Virus record (IMG/VR): IMGVR_UViG_3300033075_001021
Length of the DNA: 64,000 nt
Strand: one strand, 5' to 3'
DNA from: a virus
Taxonomy: Duplodnaviria; Caudoviricetes
Shown: piece after piece, positions 23,409-64,000 of the stretch
Layout: each line of letters begins with the position of its first letter
Numbering within the stretch: position 1 is the stretch's first letter
Position numbers and translations under genes: made by a program
Notes under the pieces: generated by a model
Told to the model about the DNA's origin: nothing
The model's input: the letters and a program-made list of their open reading frames with translations, nothing else
The model's database searches: none

Positions 23409-23495
23409 TGGTGGCCCCGATGGGATTCGAACCCATGATGGTCTTGCGACATCAGTTTAAAAGACTGTTGGTATCAACCACTAACCGACGGAGCC
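23409..23495 (-). tRNA. tRNA-Lys(TTT) with long variable arm
   Basis: Loop CTTTTAA; variable arm TGTCGCAAGAC. Confidence 0.8.
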
Positions 23496-24615: not shown

Positions 24616-24699
24616 GAGCCTTCGGCCAGATTCGAACTGGCGGGGGATTACTCCGCTCGCTTACAAGGCGAGTGCAATCGACCACTATGCGACGAAGGC
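24616..24699 (-). tRNA. tRNA-Thr(TGT) with long variable arm
   Basis: Loop CTTGTAA. Confidence 0.8.
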
Positions 24700-33385: not shown

Positions 33386-33473
33386 GTACCGCCGACGGGG
33401 GTCGAACCCGCACGTTCTTTTTCAGAACACCGCCTTGAAAGGGCGGCGACATAACCAATTAGTCGACAGCGGC
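33386..33473 (-). tRNA. tRNA-Glu(TTC) with long variable arm
   Basis: Variable arm GTTCT-GAAAA-AGAAC. Confidence 0.8.
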
Positions 33474-34360: not shown

Positions 34361-34448
34361 GCGGACCCTACGAGATTCGAACTCGCCTGTCAGATAAATC
34401 TGTTCTGGGTTGACAGCCCAGCGGCCACACCAAGCAGCCCCAGAGTCC
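34361..34448 (-). tRNA. tRNA-Asp(GTC) with long variable arm
   Basis: Variable arm CAGA-TTTA-TCTG. Confidence 0.8.
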
Positions 34449-34507: not shown

Positions 34508-34594
34508 TTAATTTTGGGCAATACTCGACCTCTGTGACCAATCGGCCTCAGCTGCATCAAAGTTAAACTCAAATATGTTGTTAACGTTTCTCAT
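34508..34594 (-). CDS. leader peptide MRNVNNIFEFNFDAAEADWSQRSSIAQN
   Basis: Codons 8-18 FEFNFDAAEAD match the Phe/Glu/Asp/Ala tRNAs downstream. Confidence 0.85.
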   Translation of the reverse strand: MRNVNNIFEFNFDAAEADWSQRSSIAQN

Positions 34595-34627
34595 TGTTTT
34601 TATGTTTGTGGGTTTCCCCGTTAAGTA

Positions 34628-34692: not shown

Positions 34693-34766
34693 GCACGGGA
34701 AGATGTTAACGAAACACCGTCCTCAAGGCTCAACGCCTTGCGCTCTTCAACTGAGCTATTCCCGTA
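34693..34766 (-). tRNA. tRNA-like RNA (TTG loop with G33, aberrant T loop)
   Basis: Acceptor ACGGGAA/TTCCCGT, canonical D arm. Confidence 0.5.
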
Positions 34767-39230: not shown

Positions 39231-39316
39231 GTGGGTCCACTCGGACTCGAACCGAGATTAACTGCTCGTCTCCACCTTGTAAGGATGGGATGTTTATCCT
39301 GTTACACCATGGACCC
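39231..39316 (-). tRNA. tRNA-Val(TAC) with long variable region
   Basis: Loop CTTACAA. Confidence 0.8.
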
Positions 39317-39893: not shown

Positions 39894-39981
39894 GAACCCA
39901 TGACAGGATTTGAACCTGTGGTGAGGGATAACCCTTACAGTTTTGCAGACTGTCATCTTCGGCCACTCGAATCACATGGGC
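39894..39981 (-). tRNA. tRNA-Cys(GCA) with long variable arm
   Basis: Variable arm AGGG-TTAT-CCCT. Confidence 0.8.
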
Positions 39982-40041: not shown

Positions 40042-40122
40042 TTATAACATAGGAATCCCAGTCGTGTTAGATAACACTAGCACACACAATACAAGGAGCA
40101 ATATGTTTGATAAATTTTTCAT
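40042..40122 (-). CDS. leader peptide MKNLSNILLLVLCVLVLSNTTGIPML
   Basis: Codons 8-17 are all L/V/C, matching the downstream tRNAs. Confidence 0.9.
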   Translation of the reverse strand: MKNLSNILLLVLCVLVLSNTTGIPML

Positions 40123-51080: not shown

Positions 51081-52214
51081 TTACAACATTTTGTACAATT
51101 TTTTATCATCGTACTCCATCATGTATTCCTTTATGGTTCCAACCTTGCCTGTTTGAAGTGCGAAATACAAGCCTGTAAAGGAATCCAGACCCATTTTCTT
51201 TGTAACTTCGAATACCGCAGTAGCATACGCTTTCCTTTCGGCAGCTGTTATGTTCTTTGGCTTTCTTGGTTCCAATTCAACCCAAGCTTCGTTAAGCTTA
51301 GCTATCAACGCATCGTAGCTAGCCTTTAACCTGAAGATTTCTTCACGTCTTTCTGGGAAAGTCGCAGCAAATTCTTCGATTTCATTGGCTTTAACGACAG
51401 TCAATATGTTATGCTCAGCAGTTTTTGACTTTAAGTGGTGAACCGCAACATACGCTGGGTTCTTGATTTTAACACGATTGAAGTTACCGTCCACAACCAC
51501 ATAACCTTCTTCAGACCATGGCATACCTTCAAATGTTCTTATCAAAGCACCGAAGTCCTTTGCGTTCAAATCAAAAGCTTTAACCAACGGGATACCAGTC
51601 AACAAAGAAAAGTTTTTCAACACTTCATAGTTGTCCTCAACCAAAGTTTCTGCATTTCTTGCGGCCAATAATGTAATAGATGATTCACCGTGAGGCTTTA
51701 CTACTATATTATATGGTGTTGTTAATTCAAATACAAAGGTTGTTTTCTTGAAAGACTTGAACAATGATTTCTCAATATTATACTTTTCTTTCAATACCTT
51801 CCAGAATAACTCATTGAAAGTAGTTCCCATCTTGTTGTTTACTTCCCCTTCACCTTCAGCAGTACCAGTAGTTGCAGCAAACCATTCTTGCTTATGCCAA
51901 TCCCAATAAACTTGAATCATTGTACCATCGACTTTTTCAAGTACAACGGCAGAATTCCAGTCTATCTTAGCGGCTTGTGATTCACCGTGATTGAAGAACT
52001 TTCTGAATGACATAGACATAACCTTCCATGTATCCCTTTCAAGAATAAGACCACGACAGTCTTGTACCTCTGGGCATGACATATCAGATTCAATTTGGTC
52101 ATATTTCAAATGAATCTTTGAGGTATATGTACGACATTTTAATTTAAAATCTTGTATTGCCTTAGCTAACCCAAATTTTTTTATATACTTAACTACTGAT
52201 AACTCCTGTATCAT
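51081..52214 (-). CDS. Rnl1 (T4 RnlA-like) RNA ligase
   Basis: DCRGLI, KFFNHGE, EKVDGT, FEL, EGYVV, RVKIKN. Confidence 0.9.
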   Translation of the reverse strand: MIQELSVVKYIKKFGLAKAIQDFKLKCRTYTSKIHLKYDQIESDMSCPEVQDCRGLILERDTWKVMSMSFRKFFNHGESQAAKIDWNSAVVLEKVDGTMIQVYWDWHKQEWFAATTGTAEGEGEVNNKMGTTFNELFWKVLKEKYNIEKSLFKSFKKTTFVFELTTPYNIVVKPHGESSITLLAARNAETLVEDNYEVLKNFSLLTGIPLVKAFDLNAKDFGALIRTFEGMPWSEEGYVVVDGNFNRVKIKNPAYVAVHHLKSKTAEHNILTVVKANEIEEFAATFPERREEIFRLKASYDALIAKLNEAWVELEPRKPKNITAAERKAYATAVFEVTKKMGLDSFTGLYFALQTGKVGTIKEYMMEYDDKKLYKML

Positions 52215-53369: not shown

Positions 53370-53443
53370 TGTAGGACCATCAAGAATCGAACTTGAATCT
53401 AGAGCTTAGAAGGCACTCGTTCTATCCATTGAACTATGGTCCC
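53370..53443 (-). tRNA. tRNA-Arg(TCT)
   Basis: Cloverleaf. Confidence 0.85.
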
Positions 53444-53965: not shown

Positions 53966-54895
53966 TTATTTTGAAATATTTGTTACAACACCACGAATTT
54001 TTATTTTTTGTGTTGGTTTCCAATCAGTTATTTGATTTGACATGACAGGTTTACCGCCATTTGGATTCACTGCTAACGTAACATGAGGAATCGCATTTTT
54101 TGATGGATATCCATTAACTTCTAAAGCAATTGCCATATCACTTTTACCTAAACGCTTAGTTGTCAAGCCAACTTCTTTACCTAAATCCTCTTTATTAGCG
54201 CTTTTTCCAAATTCAATTGTCATGTGATGGCCAATAAAATTCCATCCATCTGGAATTTCATCTTTATACATGCGATAAAGCATATTCCTTGATATTTCAT
54301 CCAACACAACACCTGAATACAAGATATTGGAATCGGGATACATATCCTTAGATTCCAATATCTTCTTAAGTGTTAACGGACCCACACTCTTATGTGTCTT
54401 AACCATTTGTTCAATTTTGTCAAATGGAACACCATGCTGATTCCTTGCTGCCAAGGCTTCAGTTGTTAATCCACCAGTACCAATGTCAACAATTTGGATA
54501 TTTTCATCTGCGTACCCCAACTTCAATGCATGTACAACGTAAGCCTTAGCCTCGTTTGCCTTTAAGTTGGTGTTGTCAATAACAACTGGTGAAATTCCTT
54601 CATCCATTGACCTTTTAGCATTGGTAAGGTTTTTTGAGTGCATACGACTAAGGTCAATAAAGTTTTTAGATTCATTCATCTTAGCGAAAAAGCCTCTGTA
54701 ATCACCAGTTGCTTCAATCAAGTTGTCGGTTGAGTGTATAACACCTTCGCCAACCAAAGACTTAGCTTTGGTTGACTTGCCGCCACCAGATATTCCACGC
54801 ATGATAACCAATACCTTATCTGGTCTTGTTACAGGTACACCCAATGAGTTCTTTTGAACTTCTTCACGTAATATTTCTTTGATTTTATTCTTCAT
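53966..54895 (-). CDS. polynucleotide kinase plus 2',3'-cyclic phosphodiesterase fusion (RNA end healing)
   Basis: GISGGGKST, IDNTN, RNQHGVP; HHMTI and PHVTL. Confidence 0.8.
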   Translation of the reverse strand: MKNKIKEILREEVQKNSLGVPVTRPDKVLVIMRGISGGGKSTKAKSLVGEGVIHSTDNLIEATGDYRGFFAKMNESKNFIDLSRMHSKNLTNAKRSMDEGISPVVIDNTNLKANEAKAYVVHALKLGYADENIQIVDIGTGGLTTEALAARNQHGVPFDKIEQMVKTHKSVGPLTLKKILESKDMYPDSNILYSGVVLDEISRNMLYRMYKDEIPDGWNFIGHHMTIEFGKSANKEDLGKEVGLTTKRLGKSDMAIALEVNGYPSKNAIPHVTLAVNPNGGKPVMSNQITDWKPTQKIKIRGVVTNISK

Positions 54896-56518: not shown

Positions 56519-56567
56519 TAAATATGCCCCATAAATGAAAAAAGGTGCCAAAAAGCACCTTTATTTT

Positions 56568-56659
56568 GCGGAGAACAGCGGAGTCGAACCGCACCCAGCT
56601 TCTTAAGCCGAGCGTCACGCTTAGCAGGCGGACCCCCTCACCGTCAGGGTTTGCTCTCC
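56568..56659 (-). tRNA. tRNA-Ser(GCT)
   Basis: Type II cloverleaf. Confidence 0.85.
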
Positions 56660-56664
56660 GTAGT

Positions 56665-56738
56665 GTAGTCCCAAAGGGATTCGAACCCCTATAGTCTGCT
56701 TAGAAGGCAGACGTCCTATCCAGTTGAACGATGGAACC
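56665..56738 (-). tRNA. tRNA-Arg(TCT)
   Basis: Cloverleaf. Confidence 0.9.
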
Positions 56739-56742
56739 ATTC

Positions 56743-56834
56743 TGGACCGCTAGGCGGGATTCGAACCCACATTTGATATTATCGCAGCTCCAATTACAGA
56801 TAACGGTTTAGAAGACCGATTTGGCTACAAGCGG
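56743..56834 (-). tRNA. D-armless tRNA-Arg(TCT)-like RNA
   Basis: Acceptor, 8-nt linker, CTTCTAA arm, long variable region, T arm, CCA. Confidence 0.65.
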
Positions 56835-56879
56835 ATGTGTGAATTTATTTGACTTGATTAACAATATCACTAAAAAGTA

Positions 56880-56953
56880 GGTGGCCTCGGCGGGGGTCGA
56901 ACCCACAACAAACGTTTAGGAAACGCTTATGATAACCATTTCACCACGAAGCC
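56880..56953 (-). tRNA. tRNA-Arg(CCT)
   Basis: Cloverleaf. Confidence 0.85.
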
Positions 56954-56955
56954 AT

Positions 56956-56984
56956 TGGTAGTCCCAGAAGGATTCGAACCCTCT
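56956..56984 (-). pseudogene. 3' fragment of a split tRNA-Arg(ACG)
   Basis: GAGGGTTCGAATCCTTC TGGGACT ACCA; pairs with GGTCTCA of 57522-57566. Confidence 0.8.
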
Positions 56985-57396
56985 AATTATTTTCAACATA
57001 GTGTAATTTTCTATGGCAATTTGAACATAAAATAATACACTTCTCAACTTCCCTCATTATTTTTTCAAGACTGTATGTGTTATAGATTAAATTTGAAACT
57101 TCAAATTCTTTACTATTCCTATCTTGATGATGAAAATCTAAACAGGCTATATGTGTTTCGCCACATTTTTCGCATTTTAGTTTAGACTTAAAATCACGAT
57201 ACCATTCTTGGTTTCTTTTCTTATTTTTTAGATTTCTATTTAGCGTTGTTTGTTTATTACGGTTGTAAGATTCTTTTCTAATTTCTTTCCAACATAATAC
57301 ACAAGCGCTATGATAAACACCATTTTTTTTATTTTTAAAAGGAAATTGATTCAACTCTTTTTCCTTTTTACACCTTGAACAAAATTTTCTTTCCAT
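56983..57396 (-). CDS. HNH endonuclease (tRNA-associated; start MERKF)
   Basis: CEKCGETHIACLDFHH..CSNCHRKLH. Confidence 0.85.
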   Translation of the reverse strand: MERKFCSRCKKEKELNQFPFKNKKNGVYHSACVLCWKEIRKESYNRNKQTTLNRNLKNKKRNQEWYRDFKSKLKCEKCGETHIACLDFHHQDRNSKEFEVSNLIYNTYSLEKIMREVEKCIILCSNCHRKLHYVENN

Positions 57397-57442
57397 AACT
57401 TTTTTTAATAAATATTGCGAATTATTAAAAAAGTTCGTAACT

Positions 57443-57519
57443 GTGACCTTAGAGGGATTCGAACCCACCACTTCTCTTGGTTCGTAGCCAAGTGTTTTAT
57501 CCAGTTAAACTATAAGGTC
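57443..57519 (-). tRNA. tRNA-Arg(ACG), replacement copy on the HNH element
   Basis: Complete cloverleaf. Confidence 0.85.
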
Positions 57520-57521
57520 AT

Positions 57522-57566
57522 ATCTGATTCGTAGTCAGGTGCTTTATCCAGTTAAGCTATGAGACC
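57522..57566 (-). pseudogene. 5' fragment of a split tRNA-Arg(ACG)
   Basis: GGTCTCATAGCTTAACTGGATAAAGCACCTGACTACGAATCAG. Confidence 0.8.
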
Positions 57567-57570
57567 ATTT

Positions 57571-57645
57571 GTGGTTCCAGAAGGATTCGAACCCTCACCA
57601 AACTTACTTCGAAGGCAAGTATGCTGTCCATTACACCATGGAACC
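57571..57645 (-). tRNA. tRNA-Arg(TCG)
   Basis: Cloverleaf. Confidence 0.85.
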
Positions 57646-57819
57646 ATTAATATTCCCAACCCTTATGTTTTATGTTAGGAATTTCGGTTTTAGGAACCCT
57701 GCGAATCTTACGGTTGCGCTGGTTCTTTAACCATTTTCTTGAATGTGACTTATGACCAAGAAATCTTTCAAGATGTTCAATCTTTTCTAAACATAAACTC
57801 ATAAAATAAGATTATTTTA

Positions 57820-57890
57820 GTCGCGTAGAAGGGAGTCGAACCCTCTTGGCCTGCCTTATGAGAGCTGGCTGTATTCCAATAACCTACGCA
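57820..57890 (-). tRNA. tRNA-Met(CAT) with reduced D arm
   Basis: Loop CTCATAA. Confidence 0.65.
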
Positions 57891-57900
57891 ATGTGGTTAA

Positions 57901-57975
57901 GCGGGTCAGGTGAGAGTCGAACTCACATCTCGCAACTTAACAGGTTGCCGTTTTAACCATTAGTACTACCGACCC
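57901..57975 (-). tRNA. tRNA-Asn(GTT)
   Basis: Cloverleaf. Confidence 0.85.
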
Positions 57976-58040
57976 ATGAGCCCCGTAATTCAATTTCATT
58001 ATCGTATCCCAAACGGGGCCACAAGAATACGATTCCAATT

Positions 58041-58113
58041 GAGGACTGTGAGAATTTCGAAATCTCGACCCGCACCTTAACAGGGTGCCGCTCTGCCTCT
58101 GAGCTAACAGTCC
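58041..58113 (-). tRNA. tRNA-Asn(GTT)
   Basis: Cloverleaf. Confidence 0.85.
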
Positions 58114-58183
58114 ATTGGTGTCCATGAACGTTTTAAACCGTGTGTGCCCCATGGACAGAGTGCTCACAACCTTCTATCTTTAT

Positions 58184-58474
58184 TTAATCTTTAATGATTA
58201 AATGTATATCAACCCCATTGACTGAATTATTAAAATGTAAAAATGATTTCTCAATATCAATCAGTGTGAAATCATAATCGACAATTTCAACATAATAATT
58301 TTTATCAATTTGTTTACAACCGTTATTTTTTAATTGTACCGAATTAAATATTTCGTCACCTTTTTGTGTATTAAAAAATGCCCAGATTGTATCTAACTTA
58401 TTTAATTGTGAACACATGTTATCAATGTATTCTTTAGTTTGGTTTTCAAACCCTAAAATTTTTATCAAATTCAT
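58184..58474 (-). CDS. hypothetical protein
   Basis: ORF after endonuclease. Confidence 0.55.
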   Translation of the reverse strand: MNLIKILGFENQTKEYIDNMCSQLNKLDTIWAFFNTQKGDEIFNSVQLKNNGCKQIDKNYYVEIVDYDFTLIDIEKSFLHFNNSVNGVDIHLIIKD

Positions 58475-58475
58475 A

Positions 58476-59123
58476 TTATTTACGACCTTTTAGCCAGCCG
58501 TCCAATATATAAGTATGTAACTCGTCAAGTTTTACTTTTTTGTTAATCCCATCCTTAGTTATCCAGCAGGTACCATATTGAGAGTTCGTTTTTCCAATAC
58601 CGTAACCTACTTTCTTTTGGCTCATCAATTTTTTTGTTTCCTCTGAATGTGACATTCCTAAAAATCCAGAGCTACCAATATGATTGTGGTTTCCACTTTG
58701 ATATGTTTTACGAACACTTTCACTTAGCTTTCTTTTCCATTCTTCATAAAATTTTTTATCTGTTTTTAACTTAGTTGTAAACGCTTTATTTCCTTCTCTA
58801 CAACAATTAATTTTTTGTTCTTCAGTTAAGAAACCTCCAGTACCACCTAAACCTAAATTCATACATTTGTCATCTTGTATCAACTCTAAATTTACAATAG
58901 CTTTTTCACGCTCAATTAATAATTCTCTACTTTCACAGAACTCCAAGATTTCTTTTATATGGTTCTCTTTACCATATTTCCTGATGCTATATCTAAGACG
59001 TTTCCCACTTCCCATGTAACCATCGTCAAGATTACTGGTACTATGCATTCCGATATAATATCTACCAGTGACCACACAAGTGGTTTTATAGATATAGTGT
59101 ATGTTTGCTTTTTGCCTTCCCAT
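58476..59123 (-). CDS. GIY-YIG (Seg-like) homing endonuclease (start MGRQK)
   Basis: YIYKTT..YYIGMHST..DGYMGSG, HSEETKKLMS. Confidence 0.85.
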   Translation of the reverse strand: MGRQKANIHYIYKTTCVVTGRYYIGMHSTSNLDDGYMGSGKRLRYSIRKYGKENHIKEILEFCESRELLIEREKAIVNLELIQDDKCMNLGLGGTGGFLTEEQKINCCREGNKAFTTKLKTDKKFYEEWKRKLSESVRKTYQSGNHNHIGSSGFLGMSHSEETKKLMSQKKVGYGIGKTNSQYGTCWITKDGINKKVKLDELHTYILDGWLKGRK

Positions 59124-59157
59124 ATAAATAAATATACGGGAAGTACAAAAAAGTCGA

Positions 59158-59245
59158 TGGAGGATTGGGTGGGATTCGAACCCACGATGGTCTTGCGACA
59201 CTGGGTTAACAGCCCAGACTTTTCGGCCTCTAAAGCAACCAATCC
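59158..59245 (-). tRNA. tRNA-Asn(GTT) with long variable arm
   Basis: Variable arm TGTCGCAAGAC, CCA. Confidence 0.8.
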
Positions 59246-59250
59246 ATTAT

Positions 59251-59342
59251 GTCGTGCAGATGGGATTCGAACCCACATTTGATGTTATCTCAAGATGCCA
59301 GTTACAAGTGTGATGTATATAAGACACCGCTGCTACTGCACG
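59251..59342 (-). tRNA. D-armless tRNA-Ile(TAT)-like RNA
   Basis: Same architecture as 56743-56834. Confidence 0.6.
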
Positions 59343-59554
59343 AATTTGTAGCGACGACGGGAGTTGCGCCCGCTTATCCTCTTAATACCGCTCTAACTCT
59401 ACATGGTGATAATTTTCTTCTGTCCCAACATCCCGTTGAACGCAGTTACTCTCTTATCGTTTGCTTTGTTAGAAGCATTAGTCTGGACCCCTATTAAGGG
59501 TTACTCGGTTCGTCCGAGCGAGGTCTGACCTCCCCATCCCCAATTAAAGAACTT

Positions 59555-59627
59555 GTTGACCCTACAGGATTTGAACCTGTGACCTTATGATTATGAGTCA
59601 TTTGCTCTACCGCTGAGCTAAGGGTCA
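59555..59627 (-). tRNA. tRNA-Met/Ile2(CAT)
   Basis: Cloverleaf. Confidence 0.85.
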
Positions 59628-59806
59628 GAAAATAAAAGTATTTTTTAATAGTAGATATTCATCGATTGATAATTCTTTTGCTAAAATCATGTCAATCTTC
59701 TCAACATCTATATTCGGCGTATTAAGGATTTTGAATAAAACTTCTAATGTTTTATCCTTAGATACACCAGCATCTTTAAATGCCTCTATTAGTTTCTCTA
59801 TCATTG

Positions 59807-59888
59807 TTGTGCCCGTGGGAGTCGAACCCACCTTGTTCCGAAGAACCCACCGTATCAGGATGGTGCCTAAACCGCTCGACCAGAGCAC
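59807..59888 (-). tRNA. tRNA-Ile(GAT) with long variable arm
   Basis: Variable arm GTTC-TTCG-GAAC. Confidence 0.8.
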
Positions 59889-59894
59889 AATATT

Positions 59895-59967
59895 GTGGGC
59901 ATACCAGAAATCGAATCTGGGTTTCTTGAGTATCAGTCAAGCGTTATAACCACTCTACTATACGCCC
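59895..59967 (-). tRNA. tRNA-Ile(GAT)
   Basis: Cloverleaf. Confidence 0.85.
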
Positions 59968-60041
59968 AATTTTGCAGTTTTTAAGTCATATCAAGGGACG
60001 GAGGTGCAAGCTCCAAAACTTGGGGAGGGGTTTAACCCTAA

Positions 60042-60133
60042 GGGCGCATGATGGGATTCGAACCCACGGTGTTTGATATAATCTCATTCTGGTTCACAGC
60101 CAGATTCCATCGACCACTAGGACAACACACGCC
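60042..60133 (-). tRNA. tRNA-His(GTG) with long variable region
   Basis: Loop CTGTGAA. Confidence 0.75.
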
Positions 60134-60219
60134 ATGTTGCTGTTACGGTTGGATTTACACCAACTTCTCCGCTTGTACTTTACGGTGCATTATTCACATA
60201 TGCTACACTAACAATGTTT

Positions 60220-60295
60220 GGGTAATTGAAGGGGCTCGAACCCTCGACCTCCTGAATCACAATCAGGCGCTCTAACCAACTGAGCTACAACTACC
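60220..60295 (-). tRNA. tRNA-His(GTG)
   Basis: Cloverleaf with G-1. Confidence 0.9.
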
Positions 60296-60391
60296 ATTTT
60301 GATAAATCCAAGGTTATCAACCTTGCATACGGATGAGGTATGTCCTTATGGAATCGAACCAACACAGCCAGTGCATCGGAAGATTTATCTT

Positions 60392-60482
60392 GCGGAGAGA
60401 ATGAGACTCGAACTCATGCGGCAACTTTCGTCACCGACTCGCTTTCCAAGCGAGACCGATACCAACTTCGGATGACCTCTCC
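60392..60482 (-). tRNA. tRNA-Ser(GGA)
   Basis: Type II cloverleaf. Confidence 0.9.
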
Positions 60483-60488
60483 AATTTA

Positions 60489-60576
60489 CATACCCGTGTG
60501 GGATTCGAACCCACGGACCCCGATTAGGGGCCTCCGATTTCAGGTCGGTGCATTCAGCCTCTCTGCCAACAAGTAT
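60489..60576 (-). tRNA. tRNA-Ser(TGA), atypical (C33, possible 8-bp acceptor)
   Basis: Loop CCTGAAA; ATACTTGT/ACGGGTAT. Confidence 0.65.
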
Positions 60577-60580
60577 ATAA

Positions 60581-60672
60581 GCGGAAGCGGACGGATTCGA
60601 ACCCTCAGACGATATTGCTACCGCCCCACTGTTTTCAAGACAGGGCCCCGCACCAATGGGGTCAGCGCTTCC
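60581..60672 (-). tRNA. tRNA-Ser(TGA)
   Basis: Type II cloverleaf. Confidence 0.9.
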
Positions 60673-61006: not shown

Positions 61007-61092
61007 GCACGGATGGTTGAAGTCGAATCAACAAGCTACTATTACTTCGCACAGTTTTGGAGACTGCTTACCTCGCCAATGGATGCACCCGT
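61007..61092 (-). tRNA. tRNA-Trp(CCA) with long variable region
   Basis: Loop CTCCAAA. Confidence 0.75.
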
Positions 61093-61097
61093 ATTTT

Positions 61098-61170
61098 GCA
61101 CGAACATTCAGATTCGAACTGAAAACTGTAGTTTTGGAGACTATTATGATGCCGTTTCACCATGCTCGTG
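61098..61170 (-). tRNA. tRNA-Trp(CCA)
   Basis: Cloverleaf. Confidence 0.85.
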
Positions 61171-61334
61171 TATATATAAGAACTTTTCCTTTCTCTTTTA
61201 CAAACTTCAGCTCTGTTGAAAGGCCCAGTGCTAAAGCTTTTTGTTGATATTCCTCAACAATCTTGTCAAAATCCCTTTCTAACTCTTTGGGTTTCACCGT
61301 TCCTAGTTTCCTATAAAGTTCATCTGACATAATG

Positions 61335-61367
61335 AAAAAAGCCTCTGGATTTTAGGTCAGAGGCTTT
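61335..61367 (-). terminator. attenuator terminator of the RINHMSW tRNA operon
   Basis: AAGCCTCTG-loop-CAGAGGCTT followed by T-tract. Confidence 0.85.
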
Positions 61368-61395
61368 ATATTGTGAATCGTGATTTGCTGAGTTT

Positions 61396-61494
61396 TTATC
61401 CCCAAGTATCGTCACTATTAAGCATGACCTGTCCGTTTGAATTACTACGTATAATCCAATTAATCGAATTCATATGTCTGTTAATAGTTCTCAT
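61396..61494 (-). CDS. leader peptide MRTINRHMNSINWIIRSNSNGQVMLNSDDTWG
   Basis: 19 of the first 20 codons are R/I/N/H/M/S/W, matching the downstream tRNAs. Confidence 0.9.
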   Translation of the reverse strand: MRTINRHMNSINWIIRSNSNGQVMLNSDDTWG

Positions 61495-61527
61495 TGTTTT
61501 TATGTTTGTGGGTTTTCCCGTTAAGTA

Positions 61528-61569
61528 ATAAATATATGCAAATATACGAAAGATTTTTTAAAAAGCAAA
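61528..61569 (-). promoter_or_regulatory. tandem TAnnTTTG promoter plus TATTTAT motif
   Basis: Part of a ~70-bp near-identical repeat (61489-61558 vs 34589-34658). Confidence 0.8.
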
Positions 61570-61599: not shown

Positions 61600-61989
61600 T
61601 TAGGCATACATATCGTCGTCATCGTCATCATGATTATCATGACCATGATGATGCCCATGATGGTGTCCATGCCCATGTCCATGACCTTCATGCTCACGGT
61701 CTTTTTCCTTTTCTTTTTCTTGTTTTTTCTCTTGCTCTTTTTGGTGTTTATACTCTTTTTTTCCATCACGAAGCTTAGAAGCTACAATTCTTTGAAATCT
61801 ATCATAAATAACATAACCCCTATTTGGGTTATCATCTAAATTTTTAGCAAATGCCAAAGCATCTTCTAATGAATCGGCGATAATTTCATTAACTTTTGGT
61901 ATAATACTATCTAAATATTTTACACTAATTATGTGTTTGTCGCATAAATTTTGGCGATTGTCTTTTTTTTCTGGTCTTTGATTTTTCAT
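61600..61989 (-). CDS. hypothetical protein with His/Gly/Asp-rich tail
   Basis: HEGHGHGHGHHHGHHHGHDNHDDDDD. Confidence 0.65.
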   Translation of the reverse strand: MKNQRPEKKDNRQNLCDKHIISVKYLDSIIPKVNEIIADSLEDALAFAKNLDDNPNRGYVIYDRFQRIVASKLRDGKKEYKHQKEQEKKQEKEKEKDREHEGHGHGHGHHHGHHHGHDNHDDDDDDMYA

Positions 61990-62783: not shown

Positions 62784-63941
62784 TTACAACAATTTTTGAA
62801 AATTATTATATTCAGCCCTAGCGATTGCGTCTCCAAGCTCTTTACCCTGCTTTAAACCATGTGTTTTCATTAGTTCTTCACCAGAAACTGTCAATTTGAA
62901 TACTATAAAAGCTTTAAGTAGCTTAGAATCAATATTTTCATGACCGCCAAATTTACTAATCTGACCATCTGTTACACCTGAAACTTTTTGCATTCTTTTA
63001 AGCTGAACAGCTGTTTCAGGTGTAAGATTTAACAAATTAAGTAAAAATGTAATACCTCTAATTTCGTCAACGGTATATTTCAAGTTGTTTAGTTGTTTAG
63101 AAACAACGCTTGGATTATTCCCAACCAAAAGAGTGCTGATAACCAGAATAGGGTCTCTTTCTTCAAGAAAATCGTTGTTTACTCTCAATCCTTTGAATAT
63201 CCAATCAAACAGACCATATTTGTCAATAAGGCTCAAAAAGTGTTTAACAGACTTAGCTGATTGGATACCTTTGATAAACTCATCGCGAATCCTTTCACCT
63301 GAAATACCATCAAGACTAGCATCGTTTCTTAATGCAGAGTCAACCTGAGGGTCCAAACCTGACCCAAACCTACCAGCAAATCTTATAGCTCTAAGAATTC
63401 TAAGTCTATCTTCGTTAAACCTTTCTTCAGGGGTACCCACGGTTCTTACTACACCGTTTTTAAGGTCTTCTATGCCACCCACAAGGTCAACAACCTCATG
63501 GGTATCTATGTCATAAAAAAGGGCGTTAATAGTCAAATCTCGACGTTTAACATCATTCTCTATGTTGGTGAACTTTACGGAATCTGGTCTTCGAGAATCA
63601 GAAGACCCAATATCTTCACGAAAAGTAGCGATTTCGTATTCCCCTTGGTTGGTAAAAACATTGATTACACCAAACGCTTTACCTGTTGGGAGTGTCCTGA
63701 ACCCAGCTTGGGCCATGATTTGTTCAACCCTATCTGGAAGGGCGTCAGTGGCCAAATCAAAGTCTTTTGGCTGTTTACCCAACAAAGCATCACGCACAGC
63801 ACCACCAACAACATAAAGCTTATGGCCGTTATTTTTAAAAACGTCCTTTATAGCCAATATATCGCTAGGTATGTTGATATCGTATTTAACCCTATTTTCC
63901 ATTAGTTTGAAACGCAATGATTCGCGTATAAAATTTTTCAT
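62784..63941 (-). CDS. cca: CCA-adding tRNA nucleotidyltransferase (class II)
   Basis: VGGAVRD..KDFDLAT, EIATFR, RRDLTINA, EDRLRILRAIRF, SGERIRDE. Confidence 0.9.
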   Translation of the reverse strand: MKNFIRESLRFKLMENRVKYDINIPSDILAIKDVFKNNGHKLYVVGGAVRDALLGKQPKDFDLATDALPDRVEQIMAQAGFRTLPTGKAFGVINVFTNQGEYEIATFREDIGSSDSRRPDSVKFTNIENDVKRRDLTINALFYDIDTHEVVDLVGGIEDLKNGVVRTVGTPEERFNEDRLRILRAIRFAGRFGSGLDPQVDSALRNDASLDGISGERIRDEFIKGIQSAKSVKHFLSLIDKYGLFDWIFKGLRVNNDFLEERDPILVISTLLVGNNPSVVSKQLNNLKYTVDEIRGITFLLNLLNLTPETAVQLKRMQKVSGVTDGQISKFGGHENIDSKLLKAFIVFKLTVSGEELMKTHGLKQGKELGDAIARAEYNNFQKLL

Positions 63942-64000
63942 TCTATACAAAGATACACCATTTTTATCAGACGACAAAATCTTTTTAGGCATATTTTCGT

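Follow-up and report, generated by a model that had tools for sequence, protein, structure and literature searches.

A putative leader-peptide attenuator with control codons for seven amino acids at the head of a phage tRNA operon

The locus described here lies in a stretch of 64,000 nt of viral DNA (Duplodnaviria; Caudoviricetes; IMG/VR record IMGVR_UViG_3300033075_001021), which was analysed over its full length and is called the window below. It has a G+C content of 33% and nearly all of its genes are carried on the minus strand. ARAGORN identified 56 tRNA genes in the window, 46 of which exceed the Rfam gathering score, and these are scattered among GIY-YIG endonuclease-like ORFs and several ORFs without assignment. 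The following features were found at and around the tRNA operon, all of them on the minus strand:

61539–61569 (minus strand): promoter, TTTG followed by 19 nt and then TATATTTG, with Bacteroidetes-type -33/-7 boxes (motif scan)
61510–61519 (minus strand): 5'-UTR hairpin GGG-AAAA-CCC (folds; compensatory change GGA/TCC in L035-L037)
61396–61494 (minus strand): leader ORF, 32 codons and TAA (ORF calling, orthologues)
61435–61491 (minus strand): control codons 2–20 of the leader, 18 of the 19 being W, S, H, I, M, N or R and all seven present
61335–61367 (minus strand): intrinsic terminator with a 10-bp stem, a 10-nt loop and a T6 tract (fold, -13.8 kcal/mol)
61157–61330 (minus strand): conserved 57-residue ORF, first gene after the putative attenuator (conservation in relatives)
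61098–61169 (minus strand): tRNA-Trp(CCA) (ARAGORN, Rfam)
61008–61093 (minus strand): tRNA-like gene with a CCA anticodon loop and a long extra arm, possibly a second tRNA-Trp (30 bits, below threshold)
56568–60672 (minus strand): the other 17 tRNA genes (Ser x4, His x2, Ile x2, CAT x2, Asn x3, Arg x4)
56541–56562 (minus strand): terminator closing the unit, directly after tRNA-Ser(GCT) (terminator scans)
62784–63992 (minus strand): CCA-adding enzyme flanking the operon
53966–54895 (minus strand): kinase flanking the operon
51081–52214 (minus strand): RNA ligase flanking the operon

The RNA ligase is of the T4 Rnl1 type, while the kinase shows a faint, sub-threshold match resembling a tRNA-ligase phosphodiesterase, and together with the CCA-adding enzyme they could form a tRNA-repair set. 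The gene directly upstream, 61600–61989 (minus strand), encodes a His/Gly-rich and then Asp-rich tail at its end and has no family match, and no terminator was found between it and the leader promoter.

When scanning the window for the motif TTTG-N18-21-TAnnTTTG, the form of the Bacteroidetes housekeeping promoter, 23 matches appeared compared to 3.6 ± 2.2 in shuffled sequences, and 19 of the 23 are situated on the coding strand just 5' of ORFs. A scan of the window for E. coli-type sigma-70 promoters was uninformative (28 sites, 21 expected). The leader ORF begins about 40 nt 3' of the promoter at 61569–61539, near-identical copies of which are located 5' of three other leaders in the window. 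Two uncultured phages, LR745206 and LR756502, with genomes of 635 and 642 kb, encode the CCA-adding enzymes closest to that of the window (38–39% identity). Genomes above 634 kb fall within the Mahaphage clade and have predicted Bacteroidetes hosts (PMC7162821), and the excess of promoter motifs agrees with this prediction.

A further feature of the tRNA genes is that many amino acids are represented by a tRNA of canonical length and by a second copy of 84–91 nt, though these are class I tRNAs. Such long second copies were seen for His, Asn, Ile, Cys, Val, Asp, Glu, Thr and Lys, and they are located at 60042–60132, 59158–59245, 59806–59889, 39894–39981, 39231–39316, 34361–34448, 33386–33473, 24616–24699 and 23409–23495. 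In tRNA-His 60042–60132, the only long copy inspected, the extra 10–20 nt are inserted in the variable region and apparently lack structure. LR745206 (L002) shows this doubling of tRNA lengths as well.

The unit that follows the terminator at 61335–61367 covers about 5 kb and ends at the second terminator, 56562–56541. No full promoter motif was found between 61539 and 56541, and with the promoter at 61569–61539 on one side and the next terminator on the other the unit can thus be delimited without reference to the leader. Its 18–19 tRNA genes cover precisely the set of seven found in the leader: W, S, H, I, M, N and R. ARAGORN and Rfam identify them as Trp(CCA) x1, Ser x4 (TGA, TGA, GGA, GCT), His x2, Ile(GAT) x2, CAT x2, Asn x3 and Arg x4 (TCG, ACG, CCT, TCT); a fifth Arg tRNA (TCT), at 53443–53371, is located outside the unit. 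Among the tRNA genes within 56568–60672 there are one ORF with a weak GIY-YIG-like match and several others without assignment. The original prediction, made without any database searches, had listed four Ser, two His, two Met(CAT), three Asn as well as Arg tRNAs, all of which were confirmed by ARAGORN and Rfam, together with a single Ile tRNA, which has to be corrected to two Ile(GAT) genes. It had also counted two tRNAs for Trp. One of these is the tRNA-Trp(CCA) while the second corresponds only to the tRNA-like gene at 61008–61093, which is not called by ARAGORN and matches no model other than that of tRNA-Sec, with 30 bits and below the gathering score. The relative L005 harbours two ARAGORN-called tRNA-Trp genes at this position.

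The 57-residue ORF starts with its ATG 5 nt past the T tract of the terminator and overlaps tRNA-Trp by 13 nt, its own 3' end running into the 5' end of the tRNA gene. All relatives with this unit type carry the ORF in the same place, between terminator and tRNA-Trp, with 56% identity and conservative substitutions, and it belongs to no Pfam or PHROG family; a search among 5.8 billion clusters gave close homologues only. Apart from this ORF and the 18–19 tRNA genes, the genes downstream of the terminator include no amino-acid biosynthesis or aminoacyl-tRNA synthetase genes.

When analysing the leader itself, the ORF at 61494–61396 was recovered as originally described, with 19 of its first 20 codons specifying M, R, I, N, H, S or W and with AGA (twice), CGT, ATA and TGG all found among them; the only residue outside the set in codons 2–20 is a Thr (ACT) at codon 3. 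The seven amino acids make up 29.8% of the residues in the long ORFs of the window, and with this background the probability of at least 18 out of 19 is 4.7e-9. With a six-frame background it becomes 7.7e-8, or 0.004 after multiplying by 47,861, the number of stop-free 19-codon stretches in the six frames of the 64-kb window, all of which were scored. The leader has the top score of these 47,861 stretches and a score of 17 or 18 is reached only by stretches overlapping it. The first five codons are weak evidence since they are shared with a paralogous leader at 34594 and similar N-termini are present also in leaders whose operons lack the corresponding tRNAs; in codons 6–20, 15 out of 15 are within the set (P 1.3e-8). 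No Shine-Dalgarno sequence is visible at the leader ORF. The 5'-UTR hairpin GGG-AAAA-CCC is common to the leaders at 61494 and 34594, the second copy being located at 34610–34620 (minus strand).

The leader ORF is open from ATG to stop in 11 out of 11 orthologues and its internal indels are multiples of three. Such an arrangement bears on the possibility that tRNAs are bound by the untranslated leader RNA itself, codon to anticodon, in the manner of a T-box. Direct binding would likewise match the codons of a leader to the downstream tRNAs, but the matching triplets are kept in one frame, from ATG to stop in all orthologues and with indels in threes. Nor does a search of 61620–61170 against Rfam give any leader family, T-box or other match, either at the gathering score or at E ≤ 1, and the leader matches none of the His, Trp, Thr and Leu leader covariance models; we therefore hold direct binding to be very improbable.

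It could also be asked if the ORF merely specifies a micro-protein with a function of its own, or if the AT-rich composition produced the match by chance, since N, I, S and R (as AGA) are common in AT-rich DNA and the leader at 40122, which belongs to one of the sister units described below, looks like a membrane helix. This is hard to reconcile with the P values of about 5e-9 to 8e-8, with the unique maximum in the window and with the pattern of substitutions. Among seven orthologues 79% of the substitutions in the control region stay within the set, although the exchanges are chemically radical (e.g. I with R; mean BLOSUM62 -1.12), whereas the adjacent 57-residue gene in the same loci shows conservative changes (mean BLOSUM62 +0.31). 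The rare residues W, H and M are kept in all orthologues of the leader. Closer relatives recovered through the 57-residue protein show the same pattern, all keeping Trp, at least one His and an internal Met. As judged from these comparisons of sequences, selection is acting on membership of the set and not on the chemistry of the peptide.

One codon within the control region stands apart. The Ser codon TCG and its flanks, 61465–61453 on the minus strand (AATTCGATTAA), are invariant or nearly so in 11 out of 11 orthologous leaders, while the neighbouring control codons vary freely; TCG makes up 3% of the Ser codons in the long ORFs.

Three segments of the transcript are of importance for the alternative structures discussed in the following:

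61476–61488 (minus strand): segment 1, codons 3–7, pairing with codons 23–27 in the ribosome-free fold (folds)
61420–61430 (minus strand): segment 2, 5' strand of the putative antiterminator, AGGTCA-T-GCTT, codons 22–25 (duplex, covariation)
61354–61366 (minus strand): segment 3, 5' arm and first loop bases of the terminator, AAGC-CTC-TGACCT (duplex, covariation)

The terminator at 61367–61335 was missed by one terminator scan, the loop limit of which is 8 nt. The pairing of AGGTCA with TGACCT and of GCTT with AAGC, which had been proposed from the letters alone, proved to be real, with a duplex of -12.2 kcal/mol to be compared with -13.8 kcal/mol for the terminator hairpin. In the fold of the full leader (-40.7 kcal/mol, z -4.0) the terminator is formed and the start of the ORF is paired to codons 23–27. 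When the upstream part is removed or masked, as it would be by a ribosome stalled at codons 2–17, the antiterminator becomes the minimum-energy fold, as it also is when just the stretch from codon 19 through the terminator loop is folded (-17.4 kcal/mol, z -2.2).

The antiterminator helix is 92% paired in nine orthologues, compared to 15–45% when the strands are slid. One of its pairs is A-U in five of the nine sequences and G-C in four, and broken in none; the 3' base of this switching pair (alignment column 148) is positioned in the terminator loop, where it is not constrained by the terminator itself. In L004 and L005 the stem of the terminator is different and segment 2 is changed to match (GAATCGG with CCGATTC). 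Pairing between segments 1 and 2 is found in the own fold of each orthologue, but in a fixed register only 70% of the cells are paired and the covariation is not significant, and the 1:2 (protector) helix is thus suggestive only and not proven.

The unit of promoter, leader, copy of the terminator arm and terminator is not confined to this operon but is present also 5' of the other three tRNA blocks of the window:

40185–39985: sister unit before the C/V/L block
34669–34458: sister unit before the D/F/E/A/N block
26118–25899: sister unit before the P/Q/Y/T/K/G block

When each leader is compared with each set of tRNAs the resulting matrix is dominated by its diagonal (18, 11, 14 and 17 of 19 for the four units), and the four tRNA sets of the window jointly cover all 20 amino acids. 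A lone tRNA-Gln(TTG) gene, 34693–34765 (minus strand), is situated just 5' of the D/F/E/A/N promoter; two more promoters (35897 and 35779) precede it, and none of the four leaders obviously controls it.

Automatic screening of 30 fetched loci and the window gave 33 units, to which LR756502 adds seven. The tRNAs of LR745206 and LR756502 fall into other groupings (H/F/W/K; R/S; E/Y; I/G/M/A; N/R/L/V/I/T/M; P/D; Q) and every leader is enriched in the codons of its own tRNA set; even three or four tRNA-Gln genes are preceded by a leader with a run of glutamine codons. The largest sets, of seven amino acids, are those of the unit with the leader at 61494 and of the N/R/L/V/I/T/M unit of LR745206. 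In the former unit type alone, the terminator and the first tRNA gene are separated by a small conserved protein gene. When the leaders of 11 units were permuted against the tRNA sets, the observed match was reached in none of 100,000 permutations. In 18 units the duplex between each leader and its own terminator arm has a mean of -13.0 kcal/mol, compared to -9.5 ± 0.58 kcal/mol when permuted; the observed mean was not reached once in 200,000 permutations, and the segment forming the antiterminator duplex is always located just after the control codons. With both permutation tests at zero, the micro-protein and the chance product raised above were rejected on the six-frame maximum, the permutations, the substitution pattern and the P values, and neither retains any real plausibility.

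A separate idea, that synonymous codons are used to sample isoacceptors, was tried and found no support: the four leaders of the window use 38 distinct codons compared to 36.1 expected (P 0.27), and the diversity of synonymous codons in the leader at 61494 is 12 compared to 11.6 expected.

We consider it likely that this element is a ribosome-mediated (trp-type) transcription attenuator heading a phage tRNA operon and providing feedback on tRNA supply, with translation, stalling and read-through being inferred. The original prediction of an attenuator is supported in so far as the hallmarks that can be read at the sequence level are present, conserved and co-varying with the tRNA content across relatives. 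What sequence and comparison establish is the promoter motif, a conserved ORF, the terminator, an alternative pairing that covaries, and the match of codons and tRNAs across genomes. That the ORF is translated, that ribosomes stall on it and are coupled to the polymerase, and in which direction the system responds are inferences.

According to this model transcription would start about 40 nt 5' of the 32-codon ORF. With prompt translation the ribosome would either overrun segment 2 or leave it bound to the ORF start. This would allow the hairpin 61367–61338 to form, and RNA polymerase would stop at the T tract without reaching the 57-residue ORF and the 18–19 tRNA genes. If an aminoacyl-tRNA is scarce the ribosome would instead stall, at any of the control codons, and keep the start of the ORF off segment 2, which when free would capture the emerging 5' arm and loop of the terminator, so that no terminator is formed and transcription may continue to 56541. 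The phage would, if the sequence has been read correctly, probably make the tRNA block only when ribosomes decode the leader codons slowly: the block is predicted to stay off while host and phage tRNAs together suffice for W, S, H, I, M, N and R, and to be made when those for any of the seven become limiting. Since the products are the very tRNAs tested by the leader this would constitute negative feedback on tRNA supply.

The proposed switch leaves one step less well defined. The stop codon is located 21 nt beyond segment 2, and a ribosome parked there would therefore leave segment 2 uncovered, unlike in trpL. In a simple footprint model with the ribosome at the stop codon the antiterminator is still predicted and termination is not reproduced, so that termination behind an unstalled ribosome must rely on timing or on the 1:2 pairing. 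In the same model a ribosome stalled at the last control codons (about 18–20) would mask segment 2. As the model does not explain how an unstalled ribosome blocks the antiterminator, and as the hairpin has only -13.8 kcal/mol and a long loop of 10 nt which may make it leaky, the terminator could be suggested to act merely as a leaky damper that is always on, or to mark where a small independent gene ends, with an ORF that is translated without control over termination. This would however account neither for a segment 2 that co-varies with the terminator arm of each unit nor for a leader composition that tracks the tRNA content across genomes, and there is no promoter between the terminator and the downstream genes; it is in our view decidedly unlikely.

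For the attenuator, the physiological signal also remains a matter of inference. The device reads the speed of decoding, and a missing amino acid can therefore not be distinguished from a missing or damaged tRNA. The same hardware could respond to amino-acid starvation, in which case uncharged tRNA for any of the seven amino acids would raise transcription of the block. The structural evidence fits this equally well, a stalled ribosome being unable to distinguish an uncharged from an absent tRNA, and all classical attenuators sense charging. Such a loop would on the other hand be futile, as extra tRNA gives no relief from a lack of amino acids. In addition, the regulated genes are tRNAs and one small ORF instead of biosynthetic or charging enzymes, and the neighbouring CCA-adding enzyme and RNA ligase act on the ends and breaks of tRNAs and not on metabolism. 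Starvation as the signal thus appears unlikely, and tRNA supply is the likelier cue because the regulated products are tRNAs themselves. The seven-amino-acid sensor initially proposed consequently holds for the match of the codons to seven amino acids, but as to what is sensed, tRNA supply makes more sense than the amino acids.

The presence of the CCA-adding enzyme, the kinase and the RNA ligase in the same region fits a phage that manages tRNA damage, and from the neighbouring CCA-adding enzyme and RNA ligase it may be inferred, as a suggestion, that damage to tRNAs is a relevant cue. More speculatively, and with some doubt on our part, the four leaders could form a decoding checklist for all 20 amino acids working as a sensor in counter-defence. 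Host anticodon nucleases or phage-induced turnover would deplete tRNAs and only the operon holding the replacements would be de-attenuated, in concert with the CCA-adding enzyme and the T4 Rnl1-type RNA ligase mending the ends and breaks of tRNAs; the unit with the leader at 61494 (unit A) would be the arm for W, S, H, I, M, N and R.

To our knowledge the timing and dosing of phage-carried tRNAs are not understood, and we know of no evidence that tRNA genes in general are under leader-peptide attenuation. Nor do we know of any ribosome-mediated leader-peptide attenuator that controls genes other than those for amino-acid biosynthesis or aminoacyl-tRNA synthetases. Full-text literature searches gave no description of leader-peptide control of tRNA genes, and a paper on huge phages makes no mention of it (PMC7162821). 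If the proposed mechanism is true, decoding capacity would be under direct product feedback, a textbook mechanism would be extended to a new class of genes with seven specificities in one leader, and there would be a simple and testable link between the tRNA arrays of phages and host defences that target tRNAs. Transcription units and tRNA identities in the genomes of uncultured phages could furthermore be predicted from the covariation of leaders and tRNAs.

Among known systems, multivalent leader-peptide attenuators are found in enterobacteria, with the ilvGMEDA leader responding to Ile, Leu and Val and thrL to Thr and Ile, next to trpL, hisL and pheL. In common with these, the phage unit has a short promoter-proximal ORF whose control codons specify more than a single amino acid. 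Its structural genes are likewise preceded by an intrinsic terminator, and its antiterminator and terminator exclude each other in a choice that would be set by the position of the ribosome. It differs in controlling tRNA genes instead of biosynthetic enzymes, in having seven specificities compared to one to three or four, in control codons that are interspersed and not in runs, in the distance of 21 nt from segment 2 to the stop codon, and in being phage-borne, with a Bacteroidetes-type promoter, no visible Shine-Dalgarno sequence and no match to a leader family in Rfam. Also in E. coli, the pheST operon is attenuated through the pheM leader and encodes the synthetase for one amino acid. As in the phage unit a gene of the translation apparatus is here controlled by the speed at which cognate codons are decoded, whereas the phage products are the decoding tRNAs themselves, giving direct product feedback. 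The pheL leader-peptide attenuator has been described previously (PMC3082878). T-box riboswitches (RF00230) likewise consist of a terminator/antiterminator switch that reports the status of tRNAs and controls tRNA-related genes, but they bind uncharged tRNA directly and without a ribosome, while the phage leader contains an ORF and has no T-box match.

The element at 61494 meets the structural criteria of multivalent attenuators, with the protector helix being suggestive only, yet it is a member of no described family, since it matches no Rfam leader or T-box and controls tRNA genes and not biosynthetic or synthetase genes. It resembles its three sister units and those of LR745206, LR756502 and the IMG/VR contigs in the combination of a promoter, a codon-matched leader, a copy in the leader of the 3' arm of the terminator, the terminator and a tRNA block, and it is set apart by its seven specificities together with a conserved small ORF that would also be under its control.
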